The translations under genes and the position numbers were made by a program. From positions 124,001 through 188,000 of the forward strand of contig NW_026924102.1 in the NCBI RefSeq assembly GCF_032062105.1: a stretch of DNA of 64,000 bases, written 5' to 3'. The notes beneath the pieces were generated by a model. That model was not told the DNA's origin and searched no databases. It worked only from the letters and a program-made list of their open reading frames with translations. The stretch's first letter is position 1. Each line of letters opens with the position of its first letter. Source of the DNA: Saccostrea cucullata (lineage: Eukaryota). Shown piece after piece: positions 1 to 19,859 of this stretch.

Positions 1-64
1 ACCACAACCATCAAAAATATGAAATATTTTACTGTAATAAAAAAGATTGAGTAAAGTGATTAAC

Positions 65-1472
65 CTTTCAACTAATTCCCCGATTGACACATCGTTCAGG
101 GAATCCCCCAGTTCTTCTGTTTCTCTTCTGCTGACCGTACTTAAAGCAGAGAAAAATAAATATGAATTATACAGGTCATGAATGTCTATGAAGAACAAAT
201 TTAAATACTTAAAAAATACTAACTGAGGTCTCTTCGGCGCATTAGGTGGTACACTGTAAATGAAAGACTATAACGTTAAAATTGAAAATAAGAAGATAAA
301 TGAATAAATACATGTGTATCTTACAAGGAGTATTTCATTAAATAAAATGAAGAGATGAAACTGATGGGATTTCTGTTTATCTATGTCATATATTTCACTG
401 ACCCCAATGAACTAGTATTCTCCAATTCACCATCCCCGTCTCTAAAACGTTTAGAAATAATTGCATGAACAAAATATATAAATATTATATTTAAGGAATG
501 GTAAATAAAACTATTAAAAAAAAATTTTTTAAATACTAACTTTTGTCTTTTGGGTGCATTAGGAGTCGCACTGTAAATGAAAGACTATAACTTTAAAATT
601 ATAAATAAAAAGATCAATGAATAAATAAATGTGTATTTTACAAGTAGTATTAAATTTTATCTCTTTAACTAAATTAAAAATTTTGATAATTAGTACTCAT
701 GGTTTTTTTTAATTTGAAAATGAAAAGATAAATGAATAAATACACGCGTATCGTACAAGGAGTATTAAATTTTATCTATTAATTAATTAAATAAAATGAA
801 GAGTGGAAACTGATGGAATATTTGTTTATCTATGTCATGTATTTCACTGACCCATCTTCTTCACCATCCCCGTTTCTGAAACGTTTAGAAATGAATGTGA
901 ACAAAATATGCTTAAATGTTACATTTAAGGAATGATAAATGAGGAGGGTTAATAAGACTTATTCTACTTACTCTTTACGGGGGGTCCCGATTGGCGTGCT
1001 AATTAATGTGTAGAAAAAAAATGCATAGTAATTAATGGTAAGAAATAGAAAAGAGAAAAAAAAACGAAAGAAAATGAATTCCAGTCTTTTAAAACCAATT
1101 TTCAGTAAAAGATTGAATTAGAGCCAGGCATTACTGACGGTCAATGCAGATGAGGATGATAAATTCATTAATAGATATGATTTTTAAAATTATTATGTTT
1201 CTTAAATACTTGTCAAGCGAAATAAAGTTAAAGAATGAAAATATTTTCTTTTTACCTCGTCCTCTTCCCATAAGACACTTCAAATCTACCAATTAAAAAA
1301 GAAATACAATAGCACAATCACTTACCAAAAATGACATAATTCTCAAGTTTTAAAAATGATGAAAGAGGACTTACGGACAGGGAACATTGTCTACTTTGTC
1401 AATTAGAGCGACCAAGTCCCCGATGATTTCTGTAATTACACCGCAAATACAAACAGGCGTTTTTGATGCCAT
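65..1472 (-). CDS. Uncharacterised multi-microexon gene, 3' end runs off the window. Exons: 1472-1375, 1285-1256, 998-972, 875-852, 570-541, 441-403, 253-224, 139-65
   Basis: All introns are GT..AG (84-281 nt). Internal exons are 30, 27, 24, 30, 39, 30 and 75 nt, all phase 2-2. They join into the stop-free protein MASKTPVCICGVITEIIGDLVALIDKVDNVPCPFEVSYGKRTSTPIGTPRKENGDGEEDGATPNAPKRQKDGDGELENTSSLGVPPNAPKRPHTVSRRETEELGDSLNDVSIGELVE... Confidence 0.8.
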
Positions 1473-1956
1473 GACTGGTAAGATTTCAAGGGAAAGTTTT
1501 CCTCTTTTTATTTGAAAAATGTATCATGTGATATGAGTACCAAATTTGAATAATAAAAACTAAGTCTTATGTACAGTGAATCTAGTGAAAAAGAGAAAAT
1601 GAAAAATTTGTACTGGTCATCCTCCCTGTCAATCAAAGAGGAGCCCAAAAAAGAAGGAAATCCCTGCGTGTGAAATTATACAATTCTGTCAGTCTTAATT
1701 AAAGATGACTCTAAATTAATGAACATACAATAAACAAGACTGAAAAAAAAATGCTAGTCTAGTAACGAAAACATTTTAACAGAGAAATCATCATGTTGTC
1801 ATTTTTACCATTACCATCTGTTCTGAACGGTGATTTATCGTTTTGAAAAATGTGGTCAGACATTTTTATTATGATTAGAAAGTGTTGTAAAGTAAATTTC
1901 CATCAGTGTCATCACTCACTGTGTAATTAAAGATATAAATATGGACAGGGTCATCA

Positions 1957-2289
1957 GTGCACTGGTCAGATTATAGGACATTCCGTTCCCCCAATACCTA
2001 CGGTGACGAGAAGATCAACAGTTCATCCTACTCCCACATTACAACACCCGTCGCTACGGACACTTCAACGAGGGACACGATCCTTAATACCCATGAGAGT
2101 TCAGACAAGGGTATCAGAAATGAGCTTGACTATTTGTTCATAACTATCCTTATACCCTTATTATTTATAATGTGTGTCTGTGTTTTGAAGCTAAAACGTA
2201 GGAAAAAATCTAATCTTGTAAATAATTCAATTGAGATGGAATGTGTTGATGAAGGTGAGACGATATTATACAAAGCCACAGATAAATAA
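1957..2289 (+). CDS. Small single-pass membrane protein (S/T-rich ectodomain, TM helix, basic stop-transfer, acidic tail); true 5' exon/start unresolved
   Basis: TM YLFITILIPLLFIMCVCVL followed by KLKRRKK. The ORF has no early ATG, so it is probably a terminal exon. A possible first exon is near 1793-1829. Confidence 0.6.
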   Translation: MHWSDYRTFRSPNTYGDEKINSSSYSHITTPVATDTSTRDTILNTHESSDKGIRNELDYLFITILIPLLFIMCVCVLKLKRRKKSNLVNNSIEMECVDEGETILYKATDK

Positions 2290-2481
2290 ATGCATGATCA
2301 AAATCAAATTTCCTTTTATCATATCAACTGAAAGTTAAAAAAAAAGAATGTTTAACAGAATCAAGATCCGTGATTTGTATGAATAGTTCTGTACTAATAT
2401 ATATCTTGTTTGCTACTAATATGATTTTTGAACTCATTATTCTTGTTATGATACCTGATTATCAACCAATATCCTTATTGT

Positions 2482-2799
2482 ATGCATGCATTAACACTGA
2501 TGGAGATTAAACTATTAAGTAAGTATTTACTTAATATATTTTCTGAAGTCTGAAATGCAATGAACACTATCGCGATTCATTAAGAATTCACACTCAGATT
2601 GAAATTAAAGTAATATATGTTTTTACATGTAATTAATTTTTTTCAAATTAATAATTACAGTAGACACAGCGTACGGGCTTGGGGTGACAGGAGTGTGCCT
2701 TATCATCATCATCGTGCTGTCCTGGGCAGTGAGACTACTACTTCGTAAGATGGGCATCACATGCAGACTCCCCATGAAGAAAAGTCGTGTAAAAAGGTA

Positions 2800-2867
<68 letters not shown>

Positions 2868-3075
2868 TTGCATTCATGAAATGTTACAATCTTGCACTTG
2901 CGATAACAAGTTAAAAACAAATCAGTACGAAAACATGTTTATAACATACAGGAGACCGGCAGCACGAGACATTGAGCTGAAGGACATAAGAACCGTAAGG
3001 ATAGAAACGGACGAGAGTGAGGATGAAGAGGTGCAGCTGAAAACCCGCTACGACCTGCGCGGAAGAAAAGAGTAA
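2482..3075 (+). CDS. Three-exon single-pass membrane protein of about 98 aa. Exons: 2482-2518, 2661-2796, 2952-3075. A further 3'UTR intron spans 3079-3190
   Basis: GTAAGT/GTAATT donors and CAG acceptors with matching phases (1, then 2). Product MHALTLMEIKLLIDTAYGLGVTGVCLIIIIVLSWAVRLLLRKMGITCRLPMKKSRVKRRPAARDIELKDIRTVRIETDESEDEEVQLKTRYDLRGRKE. AATAAA near 3403. Confidence 0.75.
2803..2863. repeat. (CT)n microsatellite in intron 2 of the TM gene
   Basis: Perfect dinucleotide run. Confidence 0.98.
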
Positions 3076-3213
3076 AGGGTAAGTTCATATGATGAATATC
3101 AGTAAAAGTAGTGTGTACGTAACATTTAGTATTGTATGTTTTGATATTTTTTTGTGTGTGTGTGTATATTTGTTTGTTTTTTCTTCTCAGATGACGAAAG
3201 ATCAGTACGTATC

Positions 3214-3386
3214 CAGGGAGGAACGAAGTCACTAAAGTTACAAAAGTTCCAGGAAGGAATGTGTAAATTCATCTTCATAAAAATTTTGTAAACATTGTTC
3301 AGGGAGGAACGAAGTCATTAAAGACACAAAACAAAATTCCAGAAAGGATTGTGTAAATTCATCCTCATTAAAATTTTGTAAACATT
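3214..3386. repeat. Tandem duplication of about 85 bp in the 3'UTR exon
   Basis: CAGGGAGGAACGAAGTCA...AAATTTTGTAAACATT present twice. Confidence 0.9.
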
Positions 3387-3479
3387 TAATTTCTTTTTAT
3401 TTAATAAAGGTATAATGAATGATAAATTGTTAGAACTACGGGTGATATTTATGGATTATATTCAAAACGATGGATATTA

Positions 3480-4710
3480 CGAGAAACGACAAAATTATGC
3501 CCATGTTTGGACGTTATTTGATTGTTAGGTATCATGTGTATTTTTTTTTTATAAAAATACACAAGTTATCGTAATCAACCATCTAACATCCGAACTTTGG
3601 TATAAAAAAATATGAATGGTCCGCTAATACTCTGCTTACAGACAACATGCATGAATAATTAACCAAAGAGGTTTATAATGATACCAATTCTTTAAAAAAA
3701 ATCACGTTTACAAGCATGTTGAGAGGATGACAAAAGCATACCCATGTTTAGATGTTCAGGTATTCATTGTATAATGACAGAGATATGAACGGTTTTCAAT
3801 TATTGTAATCTAATTGAAAAGGCTTTGCTAAATCAAAGTGAAATGAACCAAATTCACAAGACTGATATGCATTTTAGATTTATAAAAAAAATGCGATAAA
3901 TAATTTATTTTCTGTCATACTTTAAAAACAAGGATTTTTTCAAAAAAAGAGAGTTGTTTGAAATTCAATTAAAAAAAATTCTTACAATAGAAAATTCTTT
4001 TAAGGAAGGATTTTTATTTCATAACATCTTAAAAATTCTACCACGATTAAAAAAAAAATACCTAATCAATAATTTATTAAGTACAAAATATAGTCATACA
4101 TTGAATATCCAAACTTTGATAAGTAAAGTAAAAAGACGGCAACAGTTTACGTGCGAAATAACAAGGAGGATTTAAAATTAATCTATTTACATTTAGAAAA
4201 AGCGTAAAACACGGAGTGAGGATGAAAAAAATAATCCCCCCTGTTTTGAACATTATGTCATTGTTAAAAATACGCCCAGGTTTAGAAGTTATTTGATTGA
4301 TAGGTATCGTGTGTATTTTTTTTAAATTAAATACACAAGTTGTTTTAACCAATCATTTAATACCCAAACTTTGGTATGTATCGTAAAAGGACAGCAACAG
4401 TGTACGCACGAATCAATTACAAGGAGGATTTAAAATTAAATCTCTTTATTTATTTTAGAAAAAGTGTAAACACACGGGTTGAGGATGACAAAATAATTTC
4501 TTCTGTCTGAACATCATGCCATTATTAAAAATGTATATATACACATAAAAAAACTAATTACGAAACATTAAAGTATAAATGGTATTTATTATGTGTGAAA
4601 AAAAAATCTGATGTAAAATACAGAATTCATTAACTTTTCCCATCGAAATTTTCCATGGTTTACTACCTGTATCGTACATGAACGAATTACAATGGGGTAT
4701 TAAAAGTACA
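3480..4710. repeat. Degenerate tandem array, period about 250 bp, 4-5 units
   Basis: Recurring blocks GAGGATGACAAAA (3723, 4218, 4481), CCAAACTTTGGTAT (3590, 4109, 4364) and ACAAGGAGGATTTAAAAT (4161, 4419, 4690). Confidence 0.7.
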
Positions 4711-5467
4711 AAAGGTAATCATTGTATATAAAAGAATCTGCAACATTCTACAAACAATGTCATTATTTTCCCTACGGAAAATTTTCCAGAGTCCCGAAAT
4801 GTTTTTTACGCTTGAGCAGTATCACCCAACAGGAATTTGAGAATTGTTGAAATATCCAAAATAAAATAACTGTATATTACTTTTATTGTATATTATGTTT
4901 TAAGTCCTCTGAGGAGACTGACGTGCGTTACTTAAGGAAAAAAAACATCATGTTTCAGTGTGGTTATTGTGAATTAATGTTTAATGATTATGATAGCATG
5001 GCCGATCACGAAAAGGAACACGAAAGGAATATTAACAATACTGCAAGGTAAGAATGACCATTTGTTTACCTTCTTATGCACAATTCAGAAAGATATCGGA
5101 TAAAGAGAGATAACTCCGCTAACTTCAAATATCTGAGGTGAACTCGGGCATTACCTTGTTAACGCTCCTTGTAAAGTCACAACACAGAGACTTAACGTAA
5201 ATGTGAATAACCAAAATCATAGTATCAAGTAATGAAGTTGTGTTATTTCTATCCATCGATGATGGCTAATATATCATTGCAAATATATAGATGTAAATAA
5301 TTGTTTTTTTTCTTCCAATTTTTTTCTCTCGATGATAAATCTGACATTTAAAGAGAAAAAGAAACAGGGATCTAATTAATAAGGTGAAAAAATCATCAAT
5401 GAGTTTACTGTGTCATGTGTTTTGTTGTCAAACAAGTACTTTAAGATATGTATTTGACCCCCCGATT

Positions 5468-6375
5468 TAAATCAAAACGCACGTATGGTGCTCCATGCGA
5501 GATAATTGTCAATAAAACAGAGAGCGACTTCATGTATGGTGGACCGCTTGTGATAAAAATGATTAAAGTTATGGATCAATTGTATGGCGTCACATAATAG
5601 ATAAAATTCACCCCTATCAAAGTATACCATGTATGGTATTCCGTTTGTGATAAAATTCGATGAAAAATTGAAAAAAAGGTAAAATATATGGTAACCTTTT
5701 TGAGTTAAAAAAAAAATCTTTAAAAAGTTTTTTTTATTTACAACAGTTATTCAACCACCCTAAATCTAAATCAAAACACACGTATGGTGTTCCATGCGAG
5801 ATAATTGTCAATAAATCAGAGAGCGACATCATGTATGGTGGACTGCTTGTGATAAAAATGGTTAAAGTTATGGATCAATTGTATGGCGTCACATAATAGA
5901 TAAAATTCACCCCTATCAAAGTATACCATGTATGGTATCCCGTTTGTGATAAAAGTCGATGAAAAATTGAAAAAAGGTAAAATATATGGTAACCCTTTTG
6001 AGTTAAAAAAATCTTTAAAAAGTTTTTTTATTTACAACAGTTATTCAACCCCCCTCAATCTAAATCAAAACACATGTATGGTGTTCCATGTGAGAAAAAT
6101 GTCATTAAAATATAGAGAGCGACTTCATGTATGGAAAATTTACTCAAATCAAAGTAACCCATATACCGTAACCCGTTTTGTGATAAAAGTTAAAAAAAAT
6201 AAAATATACGGTAACTCATTTGAGATGAAATTGAATTTTAAAAAGTTTTTTTTAAATGTTTGATAGTTTAGCAAAATTTAAAAAAAAAAAAAATGAAAAA
6301 TGAGAAAGTTATTTTATAGGATGATTCGTTTTGAGATAAAGAAAAAAATTAAGAGTGGGAATGTATGGTAACAGA
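5468..6375. repeat. Higher-order repeat upstream of pPolB: units of about 299 bp built from monomers of about 50 bp with GTATGG-N12-GATAA
   Basis: GTATGG/ATATGG at 5483, 5534, 5582, 5631, 5686, 5782, 5833, 5881, 5930, 5984, 6076, 6129, 6363; most are followed 12 nt later by GATAA or GTTAA. Confidence 0.85.
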
Positions 6376-6427
6376 TATCAATGAATGAGCAATGTCTTAA
6401 TGTCTGGTGTTTATTTTAAAATATACA

Positions 6428-9400
6428 ATGAATGATTACAGTTCGGGCGTTTGTGAACAAGAACTGTTTCGAGACATCCAAAACATGGACTGGACACCTG
6501 TTACGGGAGACGACCTATTATACCAGGCGTCCACGTCCAGCGGTGCTCATGCAGAGAGCATGGACTTTAAGGACATTGCCGATTCCTCCTTCCACGGCGA
6601 GGAATCCCTGTTGATGGAAGAAGATGGACTCTTTTCGGAAATCACGGATACCTCTTTTCACGGTGAAGATTCTCTCCTTTGCGACATACCAGTGGATCCG
6701 CTGAGCGATTCATTAGCCGGTCAGTACGGTGCTGGACGAAAAGACGATTTCGATATTCGAATCATACGTGAAAAGAAATTGAAAAAGATGGGAGCCGTGG
6801 ACTTGCAGTACGAGTTGACGTTCCACGACGACCTCTTTCGGGAAAAAAAGAAGATGATCGAAGTCAAAAACGTCTTGAAAGACGCCTTCGAAGAGATGCT
6901 CGATCGAGTCAAGAAGGACCTTCGTCGCGGAGATCTCGTCAGGGCAGCCATCCATAATGATCATTTGGACTTGCCCGTGTTCGTCCCCTGTCGACCCATG
7001 GAGGAGATGGACGCAGAGACCATGCTAGAAAGCCTGATGATCGTCCTTAACAGTCACCAGGACCTGCCTTTCGATTCCTCTTGTCGAATCGATATCGGGG
7101 CCATCAAATATCCACGCGGTGGTACGGGAGTAAAGATGTCTTCCGTCGCTAAATCGATTGCCGAGAAGAGAGCCATTATAAAGATACGCAATACCGATAA
7201 CAAGTGTCTCGTCCGCGCTACTCTCGTCTCTTTGGCCCACAGTTGTCAAATTCACATCACTGAGTTTAACAACGTCAAGGCGCGTCATCCGACCCTCACG
7301 ACCGGGGAAATTCTCATTTTTTACCACCAGTGTCCGCTCTGGTATTGCAGGGATCTGCGAAAAAACCACAAAGGAGCCCAAGACAGCCTGACAAATCAGA
7401 TCTGTGAAACGATGAATATCGTCGATGACGGTCCGTTGTCCTACTTGGCCATCCCTCCTCTAGAAGATTTTCTCAACGTGAACCTCTACATCATCAGTGC
7501 GAAGATGGGGAACGCATTCTCTTACATCAGTGCCCATCACGACGAAGAACGAAAGAAACTATTCCTGCTGCACGACGACACGGAGGGGGCCGAACACTTT
7601 TATCCCATCACGACGCTGGCAGGTTTCTTTTGTCGGTCACGGTTCTGCAGTACGTGTTTAAAACCATACGAAAAACCATACGGACATAAATGCAAACACC
7701 ATTGCAATGTCTGCTTTTCCGATCATTGTCCCGTACTACAAAAGAGAGCTTGTCCAGACTGTCATCAGACCTGTCGCTCTGGGGCTTGTTTCATTCGACA
7801 TAAGAATCCCATGGAAGGAGGGACCACACCTTGCGATCTCCGATACAGATGTCCGACCTGCAAGAAGACTTTCTTACGACACGAGTTAAAACCCGAAGAT
7901 CACCGATGCGGTCATTACATCTGCAAGTCCTGCAGGCAATACGTAGATCCCGAACATCTGTGCTACGCCAGGAGACACCCTTCCAAGGAAAACGAAACCA
8001 GTCGACGATTCATTTTTGCCGACATCGAGGCCTCACAAAAGGACGAAATCGTCCAGTGTGAGTGGGGATACGCACCTCGACGCCTCAACGACTGTACCGA
8101 ATGTCGAACAGAGCAAGACCCGTGCCCCTCCTGTCGACTCTGTCAACACTGTCTCAAATCGCACTGCGGAAAATTTAAACATACCGTGGTCTTGGCAGTG
8201 TGTCAGACCGCCTGTGAAAATTGCGAGAACGACGACGTCACATTCGACAGTACGTGCGCTTCTTGTGGAGACCGATGCTCGACCTGTGACAAGAAGGACA
8301 AGAAAACCAAACAGTACCTTTCGCTTCCCTGTCCTGGTCGATGCGGACAGCGAGAGCGCGTCTTCCAGACCTTGTACGATCTCGGGATATGGATCTTTCG
8401 CGAACATCACAAAGGCTTTACCGTCCTGTTTCATAACCTCTCGTACGATGGCCAGTTTCTTCTGCAGTACTTACTGTCGCAGTCCATTCGTCCTTCCTTT
8501 ATCATTTACAGGGGAAGTAAAATTCAAATGTTCAACATCACCGGCCTTCAAATCCGAGTCATCGATTCGTTTAACTTCCTACCGATGGCCTTATCCAAAC
8601 TCCCCAAAGCCTTCCAGCTGGAATCGCTGGCCAAGGGGTACTTTCCTCACTTTTTTACATGCCAGGCCAACCGGAATTATGTGGGACCTTACCCACCTGC
8701 CGAGACTTATGGTCCCAATGCCATGTCTGTGGATGGTAGAAAAGAGTTCTTCAAATGGTACGACGCTAAAGTCACCAGTGGAGACCTCTTTGATTTTCAA
8801 CAAGAAATCCTCAAGTACTGCCGAAGCGACGTTGACATCCTCCGACGTGCCTGTCTCAAGTTCAAGAACCTCCTGCAGGAAGCAACCGGTAAAGAGGGAG
8901 GCCAAACCGTCGATGCGTTCGATTCCTGTACCATCGCGTCTCTCTGCATGGACGTATTTAAATCCAAGTTTTTAATGGAAGACTGGAGATGCCTGGTCCA
9001 AGAGGACGATGAGGAACGTTGGCTGGAAGTCAGGAAGTTTGACGGAGAGGCGATCGTGAATGACGAGGGTCGTTGGATTCCTTGGAATACTCTGAAGCAA
9101 CGGAACGTCGTCATCGTGAAAGAAGAGTTTGTCAAGTCCCCCATTGCTCGTCCTCCACCCAAGGGATATCCGTCCCGCATCCAGTACAGCCGCAAGTCCA
9201 TCTGCTGGTTAGAGTTACTGAGACATCGCGCTCAAACTTCGGGACGCATTTTGGACATTCAGCATGCACTCACGGGACGTGGAGAATACCATCTGCCCGG
9301 TACCCGATATTCCCTAGACGGATACGTTTCCCCCAGTGCCGAACACCCCCACGGCGTGGCTTACGAGTTCCACGGCTGTCTGTACCACGGCTGTCCCGTC

Positions 9401-10972
9401 TGTTACAAAGATCGAGACGCCCTACTGATCCCGAATTCGGAGCAGACGGCTTCGGAATTGTTTTCACTGACGCAGCACAAGGAACTTCAACTCCGTCAAC
9501 GGGGACTCAAAGTGGTCACCCTCTGGGAACACGAGTTTGACGCCATGTTAAAGACGGACGAGGAGGCCAAAGCGTTCGTCGACCGTTTAGAAGTGGTGGA
9601 CCGTCTCGATCCTCGGGACAGTCTGATGGGTGGGCGTACCAACGGATGCGTGCTCTACAAGCGAGCCACCAAGGACACGAAAATCAAATACGTGGACTTT
9701 ACCTCCCTGTACCCCTTTGTCAACAAGACGTGCCGTTACCCCGTCGGACACCCAGAGATCGTCACCCGGGATTTCGCCGACCTTTCGACCTATTTCGGAT
9801 TAGTCAAAGTCAAAGTCCTACCGCCCCGCGGTCTCTTTCATCCGGTCTTGGGTTACCGTACGGGAGGAAAATTGACCTTTCCTCTCTGTCGAACCTGCGT
9901 CGAACGGCAGCAACAGACCCCCTGTGTCTGCAACGAGGACCAAAGGGCTTTCACGGGAACGTATTGCACGCCAGAACTCTCAAAAGCCATCGAAAAAGGG
10001 TACGCGGTCTTGAAAATCTACGAGGTGTACCACTGGACGGAAACGACTCAGTACGACACGGCCACGAAGACCGGAGGCCTCTTTTCCTCCTACATCAACA
10101 TGTTTCTGAAAATAAAACAAGAGGCCAGTGGGCGACCGGCGTGGGTCAAGACCGAGTCGGATCTCGAAAGTTACATCAGGATGTACGAGGCCAAGGAAGG
10201 CATTCGCCTAGACCCCGACAAAATCCAAGTCAATGCGGGTCTAAGGAGTTTAGCCAAACTGTTATTGAATAGTTTTTGGGGGAAATTTGGTCAGCGCACG
10301 AATCTGACCAAGACCCAATTCCTTCACGACAGTCAGGCCCACTTCCTCTTCGGTCAAATGACCGATCCCACCGTACAGATTGTCGACTTTAACATCGTGG
10401 ATGACGAAAACCTCATGCTGTCCACCAAACGCGTTTCGGAAGAGATGTGTGCTCCGGGTCACACCAACGTGTTCCTGGCCTCTTTTACCACCTGCTGGGC
10501 CCGGCTCAAACTGTACGACTTACTAGATCAATTACAGACTCGGGTCCTTTATTGGGATACGGATTCCGTCATCTACGTGTCCAAGGCAGGGGAGTGGGAA
10601 CCTCCCACCGGAGACTACCTCGGAGAGCTCACCGACGAACTGGACGAAGGAGATTGGATCACGGAATTTGTCTGTAACGGTCCAAAAAACTACGCGTACC
10701 GGACGCATCAGGGAAAGCAGGTGTGCAAAGTGAAAGGCTTTTCTCTCAACTACGCCAACTCACAGATTCTCAACCTGGAAAGTATGAGAGACGCTATGTT
10801 TAATCGCGACGATCCGACGATGGGCATGTATCACACCACCAACGCCAAAAAGATCTGCCGGGAAAAGATTCATTCTGAGCTCTACAGTCAAGAAGAACTC
10901 AAACAATATTCGGCTGTCTACACTAAGAGAGTCGTGCAGAGTGACCTGACCACCCTTCCTTACGGATATTAA
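6428..10972 (+). CDS. Protein-primed family B DNA polymerase (pPolB) with N-terminal OTU-like domain, Zn-fingers, 3'-5' exonuclease and inserted VSR-like nuclease
   Basis: Motifs: DNKCLVRA...HFYPI (OTU-like); FADIE, HNLSYDG, YCRSDV (Exo I-III); LDGY...YEFHGCLYHGC (VSR-like); VDFTSLYP, KLLLNSFWGKFGQ, YWDTDS (Pol A-C). First ATG at 6428. Confidence 0.97.
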   Translation: MNDYSSGVCEQELFRDIQNMDWTPVTGDDLLYQASTSSGAHAESMDFKDIADSSFHGEESLLMEEDGLFSEITDTSFHGEDSLLCDIPVDPLSDSLAGQYGAGRKDDFDIRIIREKKLKKMGAVDLQYELTFHDDLFREKKKMIEVKNVLKDAFEEMLDRVKKDLRRGDLVRAAIHNDHLDLPVFVPCRPMEEMDAETMLESLMIVLNSHQDLPFDSSCRIDIGAIKYPRGGTGVKMSSVAKSIAEKRAIIKIRNTDNKCLVRATLVSLAHSCQIHITEFNNVKARHPTLTTGEILIFYHQCPLWYCRDLRKNHKGAQDSLTNQICETMNIVDDGPLSYLAIPPLEDFLNVNLYIISAKMGNAFSYISAHHDEERKKLFLLHDDTEGAEHFYPITTLAGFFCRSRFCSTCLKPYEKPYGHKCKHHCNVCFSDHCPVLQKRACPDCHQTCRSGACFIRHKNPMEGGTTPCDLRYRCPTCKKTFLRHELKPEDHRCGHYICKSCRQYVDPEHLCYARRHPSKENETSRRFIFADIEASQKDEIVQCEWGYAPRRLNDCTECRTEQDPCPSCRLCQHCLKSHCGKFKHTVVLAVCQTACENCENDDVTFDSTCASCGDRCSTCDKKDKKTKQYLSLPCPGRCGQRERVFQTLYDLGIWIFREHHKGFTVLFHNLSYDGQFLLQYLLSQSIRPSFIIYRGSKIQMFNITGLQIRVIDSFNFLPMALSKLPKAFQLESLAKGYFPHFFTCQANRNYVGPYPPAETYGPNAMSVDGRKEFFKWYDAKVTSGDLFDFQQEILKYCRSDVDILRRACLKFKNLLQEATGKEGGQTVDAFDSCTIASLCMDVFKSKFLMEDWRCLVQEDDEERWLEVRKFDGEAIVNDEGRWIPWNTLKQRNVVIVKEEFVKSPIARPPPKGYPSRIQYSRKSICWLELLRHRAQTSGRILDIQHALTGRGEYHLPGTRYSLDGYVSPSAEHPHGVAYEFHGCLYHGCPVCYKDRDALLIPNSEQTASELFSLTQHKELQLRQRGLKVVTLWEHEFDAMLKTDEEAKAFVDRLEVVDRLDPRDSLMGGRTNGCVLYKRATKDTKIKYVDFTSLYPFVNKTCRYPVGHPEIVTRDFADLSTYFGLVKVKVLPPRGLFHPVLGYRTGGKLTFPLCRTCVERQQQTPCVCNEDQRAFTGTYCTPELSKAIEKGYAVLKIYEVYHWTETTQYDTATKTGGLFSSYINMFLKIKQEASGRPAWVKTESDLESYIRMYEAKEGIRLDPDKIQVNAGLRSLAKLLLNSFWGKFGQRTNLTKTQFLHDSQAHFLFGQMTDPTVQIVDFNIVDDENLMLSTKRVSEEMCAPGHTNVFLASFTTCWARLKLYDLLDQLQTRVLYWDTDSVIYVSKAGEWEPPTGDYLGELTDELDEGDWITEFVCNGPKNYAYRTHQGKQVCKVKGFSLNYANSQILNLESMRDAMFNRDDPTMGMYHTTNAKKICREKIHSELYSQEELKQYSAVYTKRVVQSDLTTLPYGY

Positions 10973-11004
10973 CAACAAGACATTTTTTTTGTATGAAATC
11001 ATTT

Positions 11005-11064
11005 TTTATTGGCTCATGGTACATGTTTTTGTAATTCTTGTACAGAAATATAAATGTCAATAAA
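11005..11064. terminator. Convergent polyadenylation signals for pPolB (+) and the minus-strand structural block
   Basis: AATAAA at 11059-11064 on + and at 11010-11005 on -. Confidence 0.6.
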
Positions 11065-11196
11065 AGTTCCAAAAATCTCGAGTCTTTCTTCTTCTTTGTG
11101 AGAGTTGTGCATATGCTCAGAAGGTACTTCCGGTCGTATTCACTCGGACGGTCTGTTGCCTGAAAGATGATCACGTATGTTTTCGTATAAAATGTT

Positions 11197-11445
11197 TCAA
11201 AACTTGATCCAAGTCTTGTTCTTCTTTGGGAGAGTCGTGCGCATGCCCGGTGGGGACTTCCTCTTCACGGATCCGTCGTAAATCAGTCCCGAACCCCTCT
11301 GGCGATCCGTCACCGAGGGTTCGATCTGAGGGTCGGAAGGAGTCTCGGTGTTCGTTTCTTGGTCTCGTACCTCTTGACGATCATTCTGACTTTGTTTCAT
11401 CCGATCGAAGGTCGTCTTTTTCACGAGAACGTATTCCTCTGCCAT
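11197..11445 (-). CDS. Small Polinton ORF (82 aa), positionally PZ-like; contains a QRGSG motif
   Basis: ATG in good context, overlaps the upstream ORF, N-terminus MAEEYVLVKK and C-terminus WIKF resemble PZ-type termini as recalled. Confidence 0.6.
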   Translation of the reverse strand: MAEEYVLVKKTTFDRMKQSQNDRQEVRDQETNTETPSDPQIEPSVTDRQRGSGLIYDGSVKRKSPPGMRTTLPKKNKTWIKF

Positions 11446-11740
11446 CTTTGAAATGAGGTTTCAGAATCAGGGGTATGGCCTCTGCGTGTTTCCTCAATAA
11501 TTTCTTGATGGCGGTGTTGTCCACTGCTCGGTCACTGAGAGACTGAAGTAATGTTTTATGAACCTTGAGTTTTGTCTTGTAATAACCGGACACGGGGGGA
11601 TGTCCCGAGTACAGATTGAGAGCGATTTCTCGAAAAGCATTCAACTGCTCGTCCGACGCCAGGTTGACCAGTTCTTTCCTCTGTACGGGATCCGCTTCGT
11701 ACAGGAAACGGAGAAAAGTTGCGTGACGTCTAGGTCTCAT
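11381..11740 (-). CDS. Conserved Polinton PW-like (putative core) protein, 119 aa
   Basis: Pattern L..L...QRKELV..A...QL.AF.E.ALN.Y.G..P......L..HK..L..L. Start MRPRR at 11740 is preceded by a TATA-like element and Inr. Confidence 0.75.
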   Translation of the reverse strand: MRPRRHATFLRFLYEADPVQRKELVNLASDEQLNAFREIALNLYSGHPPVSGYYKTKLKVHKTLLQSLSDRAVDNTAIKKLLRKHAEAIPLILKPHFKDGRGIRSREKDDLRSDETKSE

Positions 11741-11778
11741 GACGAACAATGACGTCTCGAATGGGTCGGCGGTCGTAT

Positions 11779-12417
11779 TTATTGGGGCAGGTACACGACC
11801 GTTTCCCCTTCTTCCGGTAAGACGTTCGTGCGCAGGCGTCGATCTTCGGGACAGTGATTGGTCAGATCCACCAGAATGTATCCGTAAGGACGGCGGACGG
11901 CCTTGGCGTAGGCGTCCATCCAAAATTTAGAACGACCCGTAAACACCTGACTTCCGAAGGTGATGATCTGGCGATTGTCTCTCACGTTCTTGAATAGAAC
12001 CACGTGTTGACAGTTCAACAGGATGCTCTTGGCGTAGACTCCGGGCGGGTAGAGGTTCTGAGACAAGAGAAATGCCGTCACGTTGCCGTGAGACACCATG
12101 GTCTGAAACAGGTGCAGGGCATCGGGGCTCTTGGTCGCCAGGTGAATCATGTCGTCCAAGACCACTACCGTGTGTGGCGAGTCCAGACACCAATCTCGGA
12201 TCTCTTCTCGGGTAGGCAATCCTCGGTAGGTGGTGAAATCGGGGAGAGTCGCTTGCATGTCGTCCACCACGGGTTGGTCTTCCAGATAACAGTACACGAT
12301 CTTACTAGGAGAGACTTCGAACGTGTCGGGACTTTTCAACAGGTTCCACACCCAGTGCGTCTTGCCGCACATGGTTCCCCCCACGACGGCAAACGAGGTC
12401 GGAGTCTTAAATTTCAT
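11779..12417 (-). CDS. A32/FtsK-like genome packaging ATPase
   Basis: Walker A GGTMCGKT, Walker B VVVLDD, LSQNLY and PYGYILVD motifs. Confidence 0.95.
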   Translation of the reverse strand: MKFKTPTSFAVVGGTMCGKTHWVWNLLKSPDTFEVSPSKIVYCYLEDQPVVDDMQATLPDFTTYRGLPTREEIRDWCLDSPHTVVVLDDMIHLATKSPDALHLFQTMVSHGNVTAFLLSQNLYPPGVYAKSILLNCQHVVLFKNVRDNRQIITFGSQVFTGRSKFWMDAYAKAVRRPYGYILVDLTNHCPEDRRLRTNVLPEEGETVVYLPQ

Positions 12418-12550
12418 CGTGACGTTCTCTTGGTAAAGGCTGTCAGAGACTAACGTCTCTCTAGAGAAAACACCTCGTTAAATAATCACAACACCTTTTT
12501 TTTGCGTGCACTTTTTTTATTAGACACGAAAATCAATGACATGAACCACA

Positions 12551-12610
12551 TTTTCCCGGGCCGCCGCCGCGCGCGCGAACCCGAGGGATCCGGAAACTGG
12601 TTTCCGGAAA
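12551..12610. promoter_or_regulatory. GC-rich upstream element of the ATPase gene with palindrome TCCGGAAAC-TG-GTTTCCGGA
   Basis: GC island in an AT-rich spacer; inverted repeat at 12589-12608 with ETS-like CCGGAA cores; E2F-like TTCGCGC on the minus strand. Confidence 0.5.
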
Positions 12611-12736
12611 TCTTTGATGATGGACAATGCGAATACCAATCCATAAAATAAAAGATACAATGTGCATTCTTAGGATCATACATACATACAGAATAAACAT
12701 TTTTTTTTATATTTAAGAGTCTTCAAGCATATAATG

Positions 12737-13183
12737 TCAAAGAAGGCGATCTCCCTTTAAAATAACGTCACGTACGAGGGACTCTGACGTCGTACGAATC
12801 ACATCGGCCATGGATAGTCCTTTCACTCGACAATACAGGTAAAATAAGGCATGAAGTCCGCAACTGGTGGCAGCATCCGGCTGTACTTGTACGTTGTTGT
12901 AGAGGCAGAACAAGGCGTTGCGATCGATAAAGTCTCTCAGACGACCGTCGTACTCTCCCGGCAATCTTCCGAAACTGTCGAAAAATTCGCATTGGTCGGC
13001 ACTGGCGAACCAGTAAGCGACCCAGTGCGTCCCCTTCTTGTCGATGGGATCCGTGTTGCAGACGAAGGCCGAGGGAAACTGTCGAACTCGCCCGGGTAGC
13101 GTATCGGAAGCAAACACCCCCCGAAAATGAAGTTTCAACCCCGGCAACGTCTCTACTCGTTGAAGTAACTGTAACGTGTCCAT
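12737..13183 (-). CDS. Adenain-like (C5) cysteine maturation protease
   Basis: GVFASD, NTD, GTHWVA (His), EFFDSFG (Asp), VQ...SCG (Gln/Cys). Confidence 0.95.
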   Translation of the reverse strand: MDTLQLLQRVETLPGLKLHFRGVFASDTLPGRVRQFPSAFVCNTDPIDKKGTHWVAYWFASADQCEFFDSFGRLPGEYDGRLRDFIDRNALFCLYNNVQVQPDAATSCGLHALFYLYCRVKGLSMADVIRTTSESLVRDVILKGDRLL

Positions 13184-13185
13184 GT

Positions 13186-14499
13186 TTACATCTGTCGGAT
13201 CTCTCGAGCTTGGTCGACGAGGAGCAGTCCTGGATATTCGCAGAAGGCCAGTGCGCTCACGGTCTCCGTGGTGGGCGAGGCAAATCGAGCGTATACTCCG
13301 ACGTTTGCCTGATGTACCAGGTTTATATACCCCTCACCCAGGTCGTTGGGGTCGAGGTCAAAGGCGTAAATGGCGTAGCCTTTAGAAAACTGGTCGCGGT
13401 CGATGATCAGGCCGTCGTCCTTGTACCATTTTTCGGAAGCTTGATACAGGTTGCAGAGCGCCGTGACGTAATTTCGATCGTCGCCAAAGTCCATCTTCAT
13501 GGGACGGACGGGGGTGGGTTCTCCGTTGACGGTCACGACGATTTCGGACAGATTCAGGTGTTGAAAGTTGTAAGGATTGCCTTCGTAGCTTCCGTTCACG
13601 GCCGACTGTTTCACAAAGACCACGTACATCTTGGAAGGTCTTCTTCCGTTCCACACGTCGTCCCAGTAGACTTCACTGGTCTTGTCCGAGATGGTCATCA
13701 TCTTGACGTCGGTCTTGAGATAATTGTAACGGGCCGGCGATTTGGTGATGGCGTTGGCATGGTTCAACAGGACGGCACTGTCTAATCGGATCTTGCACGC
13801 CTTGAAGACGGCATCGAGGATGGTGACTTTGTAACTGGGCGAAGCCTCCGCGCTCATCAGCACAAACTCGTTCCTCGAACGAAAGAGTCTCAGCTGTAAG
13901 TCGACCCCGTTGATCAGGTACTTGTCCAGGTAGAAACAGTCGACGTACAGGGGACCTTCCAGATCGAAAGTTCTGGACATTTGCGTGAACACGTACCGTC
14001 CTCGGAGTCCCTGGTTGCGTCCTGTGGCGGCATCTGCGTCATCCAAGACTTCCTTGTCGGGGTAATACAGCTGAGACTGTAGTTGCGAGTTGCTGGCGGC
14101 GGGTGAGTTGGATAAGAGGACTTTGAGGTAGGCTTTCCAAGGATAATTGTTGGCGTTCTGCGAGACGCATTTTCCGTTCATGTAGACGTCGATCTGCGAA
14201 AACAAAGACTGCAACGGCAAGTTGACGATACCCGTCTTTTCGGAGGCCGCCAGTGCCGTGCCGTCCGCTTTAGTGATCTTGGCTTTCAAGTAGAGTCGGC
14301 TCCTTCTCAAGTCGATGTATTCGTTTCCCCCTCCCGGAATGGCAAATTCGAGAGGAGCGGTGTCTCCGTCAAAGGAGGAGACGGGTCGAATCTCCGAAAA
14401 ATAAATCTTTTGAACAGCCACCTGATTGGGAGGATCGCTAAAGAGAGCCAGTTCGGAGGGTTCTGCCACGGACGTGTTGATCTCGCTCAAAAATGCCAT
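13186..14499 (-). CDS. Double jelly-roll major capsid protein (PY/hexon-like)
   Basis: 437 aa; SELALF.DPP.Q, PLEF.IPG...[28 protein letters not shown] motifs typical of Polinton MCP. Confidence 0.93.
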
Positions 14500-14501
14500 G
14501 A

Positions 14502-14957
14502 TTAAAAGATGGTTTTCTTTGGAAGACGGGATTTTCTCTGCGTGGTTTTTGTGGTTTTGGGTTTCCTTTTCTTTAGGCTTCTGGCTCGTTTACGGACTTT
14601 CGTCTTCTGGCTCCGGACACGTCCTTTCCCTTTGGAGGTCGATGTGCGACTGACAGATTTCTTCTTCTTTTTTCTTTTTATAGTTCTCTTCAGAGGTATG
14701 TGAGGCTCGTCGTTACGCATGGTTTCTTTCAGATCGGACAGGGCTCGCTCTTGCTCGGCGGCTACGGGTGTCACCAGCTGTACGTTCTGTTGGGGAATGC
14801 GAGATTTCAAGGGAAGCATGTAAGCTCTTCTGCGGTTTAGGATCCCACCTCCTCTCTGGCTGTTGCGTCGTAGGGTAGGAATGAAATTTTCGCCATCTTC
14901 CGTGTGGCGAAATTGTTCCCATAAGGCCGGATTCGAAATGTAAGTGGGTCCAGACAT
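14502..14957 (-). CDS. Basic core/DNA-condensing protein (adenovirus pVII/pX-like by analogy)
   Basis: QRGGG motif, [11 protein letters not shown] motif, K/R-rich C-terminal half, located between penton and MCP. Confidence 0.75.
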
Positions 14958-14963
14958 GTTGGA

Positions 14964-15371
14964 TCAGAGACGCCGAAACACGAGTGTCAACGTCGACTCT
15001 CCGACCAAGAATGAAACGTCGCCGTCGTTTTTGTCTCTTATATACACGTGAACGTCCCGCAGGTCATTGATGCGTAACGGTATGCGATAGGGTTGCAGAA
15101 AGATGACGTTGCGGTCGCTTTCCAGCACGATGCGCCTCAGGAGGGGTTTCTGATGTTCCCCGACGATGCTATCGTCACAGACGGAACAGTAGACGAAGAT
15201 TTCCTTGTCGGACGTCGGTTTGACGTTCGAGTTCCAAAATTCGGTCAGTTCCACCGTCCAATCCCCCGTCAAGGGTAAAGGACGGGGTAACCGCACTCTA
15301 AAGTCGTCAGGTCGATTGTTGTGGTGGACGGAGGGACTGTCCGTAGACTTGAGAACCATTCGCATCGACAT
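14964..15371 (-). CDS. Minor capsid protein/penton (PX), short single jelly-roll
   Basis: L.S.DS...H.NN.P.DF.V.LP.PL.L.G.W.V.L.E, FVYCSVC..SIVG....PLLR, I.I.D..G..V.F..G. Confidence 0.88.
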   Translation of the reverse strand: MSMRMVLKSTDSPSVHHNNRPDDFRVRLPRPLPLTGDWTVELTEFWNSNVKPTSDKEIFVYCSVCDDSIVGEHQKPLLRRIVLESDRNVIFLQPYRIPLRINDLRDVHVYIRDKNDGDVSFLVGESTLTLVFRRL

Positions 15372-15401
15372 CTTCTCTAGTACTGATGAATTGAGTCGGC
15401 A

Positions 15402-16526
15402 TCACGTCTCTTTTATGTCGGACTGAGGAATCCAGCTGTCGAATTTTTTGGGCCAGCCCAGCCATCTGACCAGAACCTCTTCTTTCCCGCGAACTTTGCG
15501 TTTCCGCAAGATCTTGTCTATTCGCCAGACGGTCTCATCGTCTTTCGACACTTTCTGAAGTTCGCTGGCGTAAAACGTTCCTCGAATTGGGTCGTCCATC
15601 ATGTCCTTCAATTTGTAGATGGGTATGTCTTGAGACACGAAACGATCACTCACGATGAAGATTTCTTCCGTGTACGTCTGGTCGTAATCGCGTTGAAACG
15701 CCCGTTTCAGATGCGTGATTCGAACTTGATCACCCTTTTTAAATCTGAAGGGTTTGCGTTTTTTCAGAGATTTCTTCCCTCGGGGTATGCGTGCGTCTTT
15801 CTGTCGACGTGCTAAATAAGCATCTAATCGCACTTCTTCTTCGTTCTCTTGGGTCACGGAAGACGGCGTCCGTCCGTTCAGCGAGCGATTGGGCGTATCG
15901 TTGATGGAATGCACCACGTCTTGAAGAATGTTTAGGTACTTGTATTTCTGAAGGTGGGTGAAGTAACGATACAGTCTCTTCTTTAAAGTCTGTATGTATC
16001 GCTCCGCAAAATTGGCTTTGGTCTCGTTCAGGGCGTAAAATATCTTGATGTTCTGCTCTCTCAGGTATTTTTGAAGGTATCGATTGTAAAATTCCGAGCC
16101 CTTGTCGGTGCGGATGGCTCTGGGTCGTCTAGGGCCACTCAGTACGTCTTTGAACGCATCGATGACGGACTTGGATTTCCGGTCTTTCAAGGGTCGAACC
16201 CACAGAAAACGAGAAAACACGTCCACGATCACCAGCAGAAATTTGATGCCGTCGTTGTACTCGGACAAGTTCTGAACATCGGCCAGATCGGCTTCCCATT
16301 GATAGTCGATCCCTTGAACCACGACTCGTCTCCGCTTGAAACCACGTCGCCTCAGTTTCTTTTGCAACGAGTAAGCATCTTGGTTTTGTAAGAATTTTTT
16401 GATTTTTCTCAAACCAATATTATATTTGCCTTCTCGTTTCACCACATCATATAACTTGGAAGGTCCGGCAAACGATCCGGCATGCCGAGGATCGTACCAG
16501 ATTTTTTTCAGGTACTCTTCCATCAT
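15402..16526 (-). CDS. Retroviral-like DDE integrase (rve) with C-terminal chromodomain
   Basis: EADLAD, RTDKGSEF, AERYI triad; WRIDKIL...LVRWLGWPKKFDSWIP chromodomain. The ORF track start at 16553 is TTG; the first ATG is 16526. Confidence 0.96.
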   Translation of the reverse strand: MMEEYLKKIWYDPRHAGSFAGPSKLYDVVKREGKYNIGLRKIKKFLQNQDAYSLQKKLRRRGFKRRRVVVQGIDYQWEADLADVQNLSEYNDGIKFLLVIVDVFSRFLWVRPLKDRKSKSVIDAFKDVLSGPRRPRAIRTDKGSEFYNRYLQKYLREQNIKIFYALNETKANFAERYIQTLKKRLYRYFTHLQKYKYLNILQDVVHSINDTPNRSLNGRTPSSVTQENEEEVRLDAYLARRQKDARIPRGKKSLKKRKPFRFKKGDQVRITHLKRAFQRDYDQTYTEEIFIVSDRFVSQDIPIYKLKDMMDDPIRGTFYASELQKVSKDDETVWRIDKILRKRKVRGKEEVLVRWLGWPKKFDSWIPQSDIKET

Positions 16527-16840
16527 CCGATCACTAGCACTGTTCGAATGCAAATGACTTGAACCCGTTTCACACCTCCATTTTTATATTTATAAAAAGA
16601 CCTCTCCTAGTCATAAAAAAATAAACAACACACATTTCAACAAACCAAATTTTATTCATCAGATCAAATACAAACAATAGTCTCCTCTCACTACTTCGGT
16701 CGACCTTGTCCATACGGATCGGAGCACCTGACGTGTCCTAGATCGGTCGGTTCGGATTCTCGAAGGAGACGTGGGTGAATGGTCTCATGATTTTTTTTTG
16801 GTCTTTGAAAAAAAAGCCACAGTTCATAGTTTTCGTTCAC

Positions 16841-17308
16841 TCATCGTACTTTTCCATCGGTCACCATGTTAGCGAAGACACAATTCTCGGACCAGCGGAG
16901 ATGTTCTCTGTAGGCATCGTCGAAGGGTTCCCAATTCTTCAGAGTCCAGCCACAGGAGAAGCAAGTGACTTTGTCTCCGATCTCGGTGTAAATGAACCCA
17001 GATCGTGCTAGATCCGTCTTGTTGGGACCTTTGAGAAACTTGGGCCATTCTTTAAAGCTGGCATAGCGTTCGGCAAAGTTGACGTATTCCGGGTACTTCC
17101 AAGATTTTCGTACGACAGGCGGAGGAATGTTCTCGACTGGCAGTCGTACAAACTCGTTTGATGTCCCCCGTACCCCCGACGACTTGTAAGGGCTGACCAG
17201 AACGAATCGGGTGTCGGGGTCTCTCTTTCGAGCAGTGGTTTGGGTCAAGAGGTTGGGTGCACTGTCCGTCTCCACGACATTAGGCATGCAATCCAACGTC
17301 GAAGTCAT
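16841..17308 (-). CDS. Single-BIR inhibitor-of-apoptosis-like protein (no RING)
   Basis: R.ASF..WP, LARSGF.Y...GDKVTCFSC...L..W...DD...EH..W...C. Confidence 0.93.
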
Positions 17309-17390
17309 GTTATCGTGACGATGTGTTCACTAGTAATGAAAGCCGAGAATGAGAGACGAGACATTAAAGGGTCTTGATCACGTGCTTGAC

Positions 17391-17422
17391 GGGAAAAACC
17401 TGTGACGTCATAGGTTTTTCCC
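17391..17422. promoter_or_regulatory. 32-bp palindrome: Rel/Dorsal-like kB site, CRE, kB site
   Basis: GGGAAAAACC-TG-TGACGTCA-TA-GGTTTTTCCC, one mismatch from perfect dyad, in the divergent promoter between BIR and the 17728 ORF. Confidence 0.7.
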
Positions 17423-17727
17423 CGATGTGATGGACCATGAAGGTACTCGGGAGAATTTCATTGTGACACAAAGGGGGGAAAGAACAATGGGAGTATTATC
17501 TCTATTGTTTGAGCAAGGGGGTAACAACAATGACGGATCATCACGGATGAGTCCCTTCGTGACCCTTAGACGACCTTTCCCACGATTCAATGGGAGTCAA
17601 ACACAATGACTCTATTCTTGGAACAATAAAGGGGACGCTGTGACTGCGCATAACGTCCTAGGTGGCAATGTTAAAAAGCAGAGGTTTCCATCAGAAAGAT
17701 CATACCTCCTCTAGCATACGGACCAGA

Positions 17728-18183
17728 ATGATTTCCAACAAGAAATATCAACTCGAAATGATAGATGATTCAGGCTTTCATCTATTCATGAAAAAGGGTG
17801 CAGCTGTCAAACAACTGATTGACCACCATATTGCCAACGACATGAGTACAGAATCCTGTGATTTCTGTAAAAAACAGCACGTTCTCAGAAGTAAGCTCGT
17901 CCATGAGAAACACTGTCTTGTCCGATTAGCTTTGGAAGCGCAATCGGACGTTACAAAAATGACCACATTCTGTTTGCGAGCACAGGATATCCAAGACGAA
18001 TCGCACGGAAAGAACCTGGTGTTTTTCTGGGATATCATGATGGTCACTATGGCCGACCGTATTCCCTTCGAGGACATGAGAGCTGCTTATTACGAATCCC
18101 TTTTTGAAAGTTACGACCGCGGAGAAATGGAATTCCTGTGGCCAGACGGAGTCTGGCGTAAAGAAGACCCATGTTACACTTAA
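17728..18183 (+). CDS. Hypothetical protein with CxxC...H...C putative Zn-binding motif
   Basis: Clean ORF with CDFCKKQH...HEKHC; TATA-like TTAAAAAG upstream; AATAAA at 18249. Confidence 0.65.
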   Translation: MISNKKYQLEMIDDSGFHLFMKKGAAVKQLIDHHIANDMSTESCDFCKKQHVLRSKLVHEKHCLVRLALEAQSDVTKMTTFCLRAQDIQDESHGKNLVFFWDIMMVTMADRIPFEDMRAAYYESLFESYDRGEMEFLWPDGVWRKEDPCYT

Positions 18184-18343
18184 CTTTTAATCAATGAAAA
18201 AGAACAGTTTTTCATGAAACCATGTTTTTATTCTGGTTACATGTCAACAATAAATTTTTTAACCTCTTATTTTTCGTTGTCTTTTTTTTAAACATTAGAT
18301 TCAACACAACATGGATTAAAAAAAAAAACAAAACTTTTGCTCA

Positions 18344-19734: not shown

Positions 19735-19859
19735 GTTGTCGCTATCACGTTTGTTTCTCAAATGACGAAAAAGTACAACCCATCTTCTATATAAACGTCT
19801 CCCCAATGACACGTCATAGAAAACCCAAGACATCCCACGTGGTCTGTTCAGGTCACTAC

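Follow-up and report, generated by a model that had tools for sequence, protein, structure and literature searches.

Two unrelated single-pass membrane-protein genes, one of them likely truncated, beside a Polinton core in Saccostrea cucullata

Introduction

Do animal Polintons carry genes that act on the membranes of their hosts? The question is raised by a stretch of 64,000 nt from Saccostrea cucullata (here called the window), in which a Polinton core is preceded, at 1957-3410, by two adjacent genes for single-pass membrane proteins, gene 1 and gene 2. It bears on whether animal Polintons have an infectious phase and on how non-enveloped particles would leave or modify a cell, and membrane cargo with host sorting signals would make the matter testable. 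A sequence-only reading had taken the two genes for a matched pair, comparable to adenovirus E3 products or FAST-type proteins. Our results support this interpretation in part: the two are probably membrane-protein genes of a Polinton arm and likely face the host, a placement drawn from a left repeat that is absent and from diverged versions of the region, whereas the pair, the E3 comparison and the FAST comparison were not supported. The explanation that we tentatively prefer, giving it slightly less credence than doubt, is that two unrelated single-pass membrane units are intron-bearing cargo of the left arm, gene 2 intact and gene 1 truncated, with a role in the endomembranes. The evidence supports a more modest claim, namely that an unannotated membrane-protein family and an orphan gene lie beside a Polinton core, and that one of the two copies is likely broken.

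The Polinton core and its ends

The element was delimited with open reading frames, Pfam matches and capsid relatives.

6428-19833, no strand assigned: Polinton core
20209-20214, plus strand: likely right terminus, ACTACT, matching the (ACT)2 motif at the 3' end of vertebrate Mavericks (PMC8097293, in the part of its text available)

The core is a complete set of long open frames, encoding pPolB, a packaging ATPase, an adenain-like protease, a double-jelly-roll major capsid, a minor capsid (so labelled from its position and size, and without a Pfam match), an integrase with a chromodomain, and BIR, macro-like and PC4 proteins. All the genes looked for in the Polinton/Maverick gene test were found, that is, pPolB, a retroviral-type integrase, the packaging ATPase, an adenovirus-like protease and a double-jelly-roll capsid. 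Pfam matches above the cut-off were DNA_pol_B_2 (8e-49), rve (1e-10) and Peptidase_C5 (3e-6); DJR-like (1.5e-3), Pox_A32 (9e-3) and the macro match stayed under the curated cut-offs. The nearest capsid relatives are 91-92% identical, their clusters include Crassostrea and Saccostrea proteins, and oyster capsid relatives are present in RefSeq.

On the left side, an inverted copy of 19700-20214 was sought in 1-6500 and not found, and no left terminal repeat lies between genes 1 and 2 and pPolB. Polintons/Mavericks are bounded by terminal inverted repeats ending in (AGT)2//(ACT)2, next to a 6-bp target duplication; of these features the window shows ACTACT on the right. AGTAGT at 643 or 3107 was rejected as a left terminus, being without repeat similarity. 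Since the right end likely lies at about 20214 and the window shows no left terminal repeat, the left end is probably upstream of position 1, and 1957-3410 would lie inside the left arm of the element. The region of genes 1 and 2 is AT-rich and contains introns, and the core has 48% GC; Rfam gave no match in 1-6500. Just right of the element end, a host gene likely has its last exon at 20768-20933 (plus strand), where four motifs contain tyrosine, and the Polinton may sit in an intron of that gene.

Among the loci searched, no relative of gene 1 or gene 2 was found placed in a Polinton. A pPolB search of viral and metagenome contigs gave no usable locus, and no locus came from the capsid alignment against viral contigs or from the gene-1 alignment against metagenome and genome contigs. 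Two loci (L001 and L003) were discarded as chance matches to stretches, hydrophobic or S/T-rich, within unrelated proteins. A third (L005, 51% capsid identity) is a distant Polinton fragment that does not show the equivalent arm. It occupies positions 1-3948 of a contig in the assembly of a Solemya velum gill symbiont, carries integrase, capsids and protease, and is likely host DNA within a bacterial assembly.

Two real coding stretches without detectable relatedness

Both genes had been said to encode a transmembrane helix followed by a basic stop-transfer run. We formulated this as a 19-aa hydrophobic helix and then 15 residues rich in K/R, with thresholds set after the proteins had been seen. 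The pattern is present in two stop-free stretches of the plus strand, whose helices have Kyte-Doolittle values of 2.86 and 2.47 and are followed by 6 and 5 K/R within 15 residues. Its two occurrences in 1-6400 compare with a mean of 0.013 in 300 Markov shuffles (two occurrences in 0/300, one in 4/300), and positions 24200-64000 of the window contain none. The shuffles thus support the helix and the basic run in both genes, and both coding stretches are real, beyond chance.

The further claim of one shared layout did not survive comparison of the two proteins. The local alignment of gene 1 with gene 2 scores 33, which 156 of 2000 shuffles reach; for the tails alone, 1646 of 2000 shuffles reach the score; and gene 2 scores -1.7 bits against the profile of the gene-1 family, a value attained in 822 of 1000 shuffles. 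Paralogy was therefore rejected, alignment and profile scores falling within those of shuffles. The layout is generic, with no detectable similarity between the two genes, and judged by these comparisons the IE(M/L) and the tyrosine that both contain would be coincidental. The tyrosine described as C-terminal stands sixth or eighth from the end, and YxxΦ sorting motifs were rejected for both tails because neither tyrosine fits. A short ectodomain is correct for gene 2 (14 aa) but not for gene 1, where the open frame encodes 64 aa with 33% S/T. Altogether, what stood of the original observation were the helices, the basic runs and the phase of gene 2; gene 1 as a complete gene, the common layout and the junctions did not.

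Gene 1 belongs to an unannotated family

A word-index search found no relative of gene 1. HMMER, run against 1.84 billion representatives, returned 8 matches at E up to 0.001, of which 7 align over stalk, helix or tail (E 1.5e-11 to 1.4e-4); P0128 was dropped as a relative, being a repeat artefact. The relatives come from Logan, ENA and JGI and bear no informative name, and in the largest cluster none of the 40 members looked at was named. They have in common an S/T-rich stalk, a juxtamembrane DKG..ELD block, the helix, the basic run and an acidic tail. Counted from starts set by an automatic gene caller, which need not be true N-termini, the stalk before the KG block has 73-173 residues in 7 of the 8 relatives measured, versus 56 in gene 1 of the window; the exception is P0121, with a called stalk of 31 aa. 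P0142 and P0133 have the same last 145 aa but different residues upstream of them; a switch of this kind would fit an exon boundary, and with it a longer type I protein encoded by a spliced gene.

P0126 was left out of A3 and A4; by eye, the proteins of its Logan cluster look like C-to-T-converted (bisulfite) versions of P0121, an artefact family. P0145, a Streptomyces helicase in cluster 5, was taken as a clustering oddity and left out of the tail-motif count.

The ESM Atlas gave no usable match for gene 1. For P0142 its leads were all below 0.9 (SMAGP, TMEM154, MUC15, glycophorin) and mean no more than 'mucin stalk plus helix'. Pfam DUF1180 (FAM174-like) matched weakly in 4 of the 12 family proteins scanned (E 0.05-0.15), over stalk, helix and basic run. 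The best of these scores, 14.5 bits (E 0.05), is below the gathering score of 27.7 bits, and the tail is not in the match.

Related DNA copies and the possibility of host genes

Junction support in RNA-seq had been proposed as a check on the gene models. Four of the 24 listed sequencing runs, two poly(A) and two random-primed, were aligned to 1-2800 at 88% likeness, and their reads showed no splice junction over this range. In the poly(A) runs, 4 reads matched among the 12.8 million records of one and 2 among the 11.3 million of the other, with zero depth in both over 1975-2800 (gene 1 and exons 1 and 2 of gene 2). From the random-primed runs came 44 contigs (27 in one, 17 in the other), most of them 90-95% alike and a single one at 99% or above; they could be alleles of a sister species rather than copies of the element. 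Sampled words were present at 7% in X1 and 5% in X2. Because these contigs cover introns and exons alike, unspliced, they are not evidence of expression: they are related DNA or unspliced RNA.

At least three contigs in two runs match the window up to 1975 and then continue in other letters, and at least two contigs (two runs) rejoin it at 2498, contig ends at low likeness being of a kind that may come from other organisms or repeats, and the species of the runs being possibly different from that of the window. One contig in X1, among the matches listed, covers 2031-2237 with 7 gap letters, and one in X2 runs through intron 1 of gene 2 and, by eye, keeps the acceptor at 2660. Several diverged versions of 1-2800, with independent insertions, are present in two runs, and variant contigs overlap within a single run.

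The last of these observations bears on whether genes 1 and 2 are ordinary host genes, or fragments of them, standing beside a Polinton that has lost its left end. We regard this as unlikely, although the diverged contigs could indeed be orthologous alleles. The left terminal repeat was not seen, as this reading would have it; the long open ORFs of the core argue against heavy decay of the element. The AT-rich, intron-containing region next to a core of 48% GC would suit host DNA, as would the host-like last exon just right of the element, but overlapping variant contigs in one run and the near absence of poly(A) reads fit it poorly. The same holds for the proteins: their architecture is host-like and the FAM174-like matches, weak as they are, point the same way, yet the members looked at in the largest cluster are all nameless while oyster capsid relatives are in RefSeq. 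We retain cargo of the left arm as the preferred reading.

Gene 1 is an open frame without an ATG before its helix

Three features describe gene 1 in the window.

1934-1975, plus strand: TATA-like box (TATAAA at 1934) and the stretch up to the divergence of related DNA copies; by inference likely the promoter of the gene 1 unit or its 5' end
1976-2289, plus strand: gene 1 remnant, drawn from the ORF at 1939-2289, 7 relatives, the tblastn start and the list of ATGs
2285-2290, plus strand: likely poly(A) signal, an AATAAA that shares letters with the stop codon of gene 1

The remnant encodes a partial S/T-rich stalk, one N-glycosylation sequon, the juxtamembrane DKG..ELD block, the helix with two Cys (79 and 81) at its C-terminal end, the basic run and the acidic tail. 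It had been read as a complete small gene, and this we could not uphold. No in-frame ATG precedes the helix, the only ones being at 2170, inside it, and at 2236, after it. The candidate acceptors at 1957, 1969 and 1976 are poor, with a T fraction of 0.25-0.30 and 1-2 upstream AG. Similarity by tblastn of the two closest long relatives to the window starts at 1975 and 1978, and the local alignment of P0123 reaches back to 1939, before the proposed break. Because the DNA break coincides with the start of protein similarity, a TATA-like box stands at 1934 and there is no ATG, gene 1 is likely 5'-truncated at 1975/1976 in this copy. A more fitting reading would be the final exon of a longer gene for a type I glycoprotein, and gene 1 is probably not functional in this copy.

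Alternatively, gene 1 could be intact through a short upstream exon (for example, from ATG 1793 to a donor at 1830) spliced in phase 1 to 1957 or 1969, the copies seen in the runs then being ones with longer stalks or insertions. Phase-1 donors do exist upstream, and 1957 and 1969 are phase-1 acceptors; however, these acceptors are poor and the candidate first exons have weak donors. The reach of the P0123 alignment to 1939 and the variable stalk length of the family would suit an intact gene, but contigs and one read pair cover about 1800-1975 unspliced, with no joint, and the TATA-like box at 1934 also speaks against it. An intact gene 1 is hence decidedly unlikely, and we keep to a truncated copy.

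Gene 2 is predicted to be an intact orphan

The model of gene 2 comprises the following features.

2500-2518, plus strand: exon 1, with start ATG at 2500 (alternative in-frame ATG at 2482) and a phase-1 donor at 2519
2661-2796, plus strand: exon 2, encoding the rest of the 14-aa N-terminal segment, the helix (one Cys) and the basic run, with a phase-2 donor at 2797
2803-2863, no strand assigned: (TC)n microsatellite in intron 2
2952-3075, plus strand: exon 3, encoding an acidic patch and then a Tyr-containing basic C-terminus, and the stop
3079-3190, plus strand: predicted 3'-UTR intron, beginning 3 nt past the stop, with an acceptor T fraction of 0.75
3191-3410, plus strand: predicted exon of the 3'-UTR, containing a tandem duplication of 87 nt and, at 3403, AATAAA

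The first reading had held that this gene becomes visible only when three exons are joined and that an extra intron begins 3 nt past its stop, and the sequence features agree with both. Joined in phase, the exons give 92 codons and a stop. The GC content is 50% in exon 2 and 52% in exon 3 versus 23-28% in the introns, with 21% in the 19 nt of exon 1. The donors at 2797 and at 3079, the latter that of the 3'-UTR intron, have 8/9 consensus letters, as do 4 of the 356 GT sites of 1-6400; the donor at 2519 has 7/9, and the acceptor tract of exon 2 is AG-free. Since the frame upstream of 2500 closes with an in-frame stop at 2449 and there is no AG in between, 2500-2518 would be the first coding exon in this copy, and the protein would start at 2500 or 2482, without a signal peptide.

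The 14-aa N-terminal segment of the predicted protein has no sequon, Gly2 or cysteine pair. Cysteines occur only at 19 (in the helix) and 41 (in the tail), none of them juxtamembrane. Of the 15 residues on either side of the helix, 1 is K/R on the N-terminal side and 5 are on the C-terminal side. No homologue was found for exon 3 in a large search of proteins of 57-182 aa, nor any match for exon 2 in Pfam and PDB. Gene 2 is predicted to encode an intact small spliced type III protein of 92 aa, an orphan. With its basic and acidic tail, the protein could also be one that is sorted, or retained in the inner nuclear membrane.

Comparison with ADP and FAST proteins

Comparison with viral proteins that act on membranes gave likeness of layout. 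FAST proteins have about 100-200 aa and need acylation or amphipathic fusion motifs (PMC12945298, as far as its available text goes). Gene 2 resembles the reovirus FAST proteins in being small, with a short ectodomain, one helix, a polybasic run and a predicted N-out/C-in topology. Unlike them, it has no myristoyl glycine, ectodomain cysteine pair or membrane-proximal dicysteine, and it is a spliced gene of a DNA element. ADP (E3-11.6K) is a type III protein with a single signal-anchor, an N- and O-glycosylated lumenal part and two palmitoylated juxtamembrane Cys (PMC7449217, excerpted text). Gene 1 is like it in layout only, through its glycosylation-prone luminal part, one helix, two Cys at the cytosolic end and basic run. 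The gene-1 family differs from ADP in its longer, multi-exon type I look and acidic sorting tail and has no sequence match to it, and gene 2 differs in having neither glycosylation sites nor the Cys pair.

No E3 family appeared among Pfam or PDB matches up to E 10, a range in which the HMMER filters drop most weak matches, and no FAST sequence match was found in Pfam or PDB. The genes show no mutual similarity, and Pfam matches up to E 10 include no family of adenovirus E3, so that a matched pair forming an E3-like module is not supported. Nor is a FAST-type or viroporin role, there being no Gly2 and no ectodomain Cys pair.

That one or both proteins nevertheless act as ADP or FAST proteins do, lysing the nuclear envelope or fusing cells for release or spread of non-enveloped Polinton particles, is improbable. 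An element with an adenovirus-like protease and capsid genes would be a fitting carrier for such functions. The size of gene 2 (92 aa), its polybasic run and its predicted N-out/C-in topology agree with them too, and so do the S/T-rich, sequon-bearing luminal part of gene 1 and its two Cys at the helix end, as in ADP. These are however layout features common to single-pass proteins generally. Gene 2 is without Gly2, an ectodomain Cys pair, sequons or juxtamembrane Cys, the relatives of gene 1 resemble longer multi-exon type I proteins, and searches of Pfam and PDB matched neither protein to E3 or FAST proteins. Indeed, nothing supports fusion or pore activity of either protein.

Finally, a chance assembly of GC-richer fragments amounting to no gene is a very remote explanation of gene 2: the search with exon 3 gave no homologue, no poly(A) reads fall on exons 1-2 and exon 1 is only 19 nt at 21% GC, but phase agreement, strong donors, GC contrast, poly(A) signal, the shuffle test and the acceptor at 2660, kept (by eye) in the X2 contig, all stand against it.

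A possible sorting motif in tails of the gene-1 family

The weak DUF1180 (FAM174-like) matches led us to the acidic-TLY motif of PMC11093223. In the available part of that paper, TBC1D23 is shown to bind an acidic cluster with a TLY-like triad after it, a combination that marks cargo moving from endosome to Golgi, FAM174C included, and FAM174 proteins carry the motif. The pattern taken from it is at least 3 [DE] of 5, then [TS][LIV][YFW], in the cytoplasmic tail. Chosen after the sequences had been seen, and defined on human proteins and cells, it occurs at tail position 26 in the P0122 and P0124/P0144 clusters, that is, in 2 of 7 relative clusters, and shuffled tails carry it 2-21 times in 5000. 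Gene 1 of the window and the P0125 and P0127 clusters miss it by one extra residue. It is absent from the P0121 and P0126 clusters, whose tails end earlier, from P0123, which has no tail, and from gene 2.

Like the gene-1 family, FAM174A/B/C (DUF1180) and other acidic-TLY cargo of TBC1D23 are small single-pass proteins with an acidic cluster and then a TLY-like triad near the C-terminus (PMC11093223, in part). Unlike them, the family has a Pfam score of about half the cut-off, in a match that excludes the tail, and the strict motif in two clusters only, the copy in the window not being among them.

Our proposal is that genes 1 and 2 would be intron-bearing cargo of the Polinton left arm, acting in host endomembranes rather than in the virion. 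Under the positive-inside rule, both proteins would be oriented N-out/C-in. The gene-1 family would be a glycosylated, mucin-stalk type I protein cycling between surface, endosome and Golgi, whose tail would serve endosome-to-Golgi recycling by TBC1D23/AP-1. When the element is active, the family might modulate the host, for example by diverting a surface protein of the host from its route or by shielding it. Gene 2, without relation to this family, would add a small type III protein to the arm. Within this explanation, we infer the position in the element, the splicing, the topology, the truncation, the TBC1D23/AP-1 trafficking and the host modulation.

Precedents for such an arm exist. Nematode Mavericks have intron-containing cargo next to the left TIR (bioRxiv 10.1101/2022.07.12.499685, from the portion of text available). 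As is predicted here, their cargo (wasp proteases, krma kinases) consists of genes with introns, in a poorly conserved region of 2-5 kb between left repeat and intronless core. The present region differs in being rich in AT, not in GC, in its position on the pPolB side and in encoding small membrane proteins instead of enzymes, and no gB-like fusogen is among the ORFs listed, unlike in nematode Mavericks as that text describes them. Vertebrate Mavericks are similar to our element in that accessory regions flank the core modules, and in the (ACT)2 motif at the 3' end (PMC8097293, partial text). The adintovirus accessory genes active on membranes are PLA2X, GasderminX and Cupiennin in the accessible part of PMC8502044; these are enzyme- or toxin-like, whereas here we find stalk-plus-helix glycoproteins. 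Searches of open-licence literature listed no report of mollusc Polinton membrane cargo, nor of viral use of the TBC1D23 motif.

The locus thus probably represents Polinton cargo of an undescribed membrane-protein type, with a likely intact orphan gene and a likely truncated member of a real family. A bolder extension, which we consider doubtful, is that Polintons of oysters carry spliced mucin-stalk glycoproteins that hijack the acidic-TLY/TBC1D23 route, together with a small type III protein, as a region for host modulation or egress analogous to E3 in an integrated, non-enveloped virus. If true, this would argue that there is a real infectious phase in molluscs and that the acidic-TLY motif has a viral mimic.

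Other features of the element and its surroundings

A C2H2 zinc-finger exon lies at 4950-5047 (plus strand; Pfam zf-C2H2_4 E 1.7e-4, below the cut-off). Its donor at 5048 (8/9, phase 2) is compatible with an acceptor at 6441, which lies within the ORF of pPolB and has 6442 as the next base, and pPolB itself may be spliced. No introns were observed in intact vertebrate Mavericks, according to the part of PMC8097293 that is available.

A diverged inverted copy of the right end is found inside the element (17393-17657 versus 19884-20126, nhmmer E 1.5e-6), and a 32-nt palindrome at 17391-17422 adjoins this internal copy. Positions 17393-20214, which include three accessory genes, may form a module with boundaries of its own.

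Upstream of gene 1 and divergent from it, a microexon gene occupies 1-1472 (minus strand), its first coding exon open from an ATG at 1472. It has duplicated 30-nt exons at about 229-258 and 541-570, and the four runs contained no junction reads for it. Elsewhere in the left arm, 5412-6254 and 3491-4532 consist of diverged direct repeats of about 299 nt and shorter units. To the right of the element, 21169-24180 is a nested repeat element with tandem arrays of about 148 and 295 nt, which we take to resemble the Helentron/HINE elements of bivalves.
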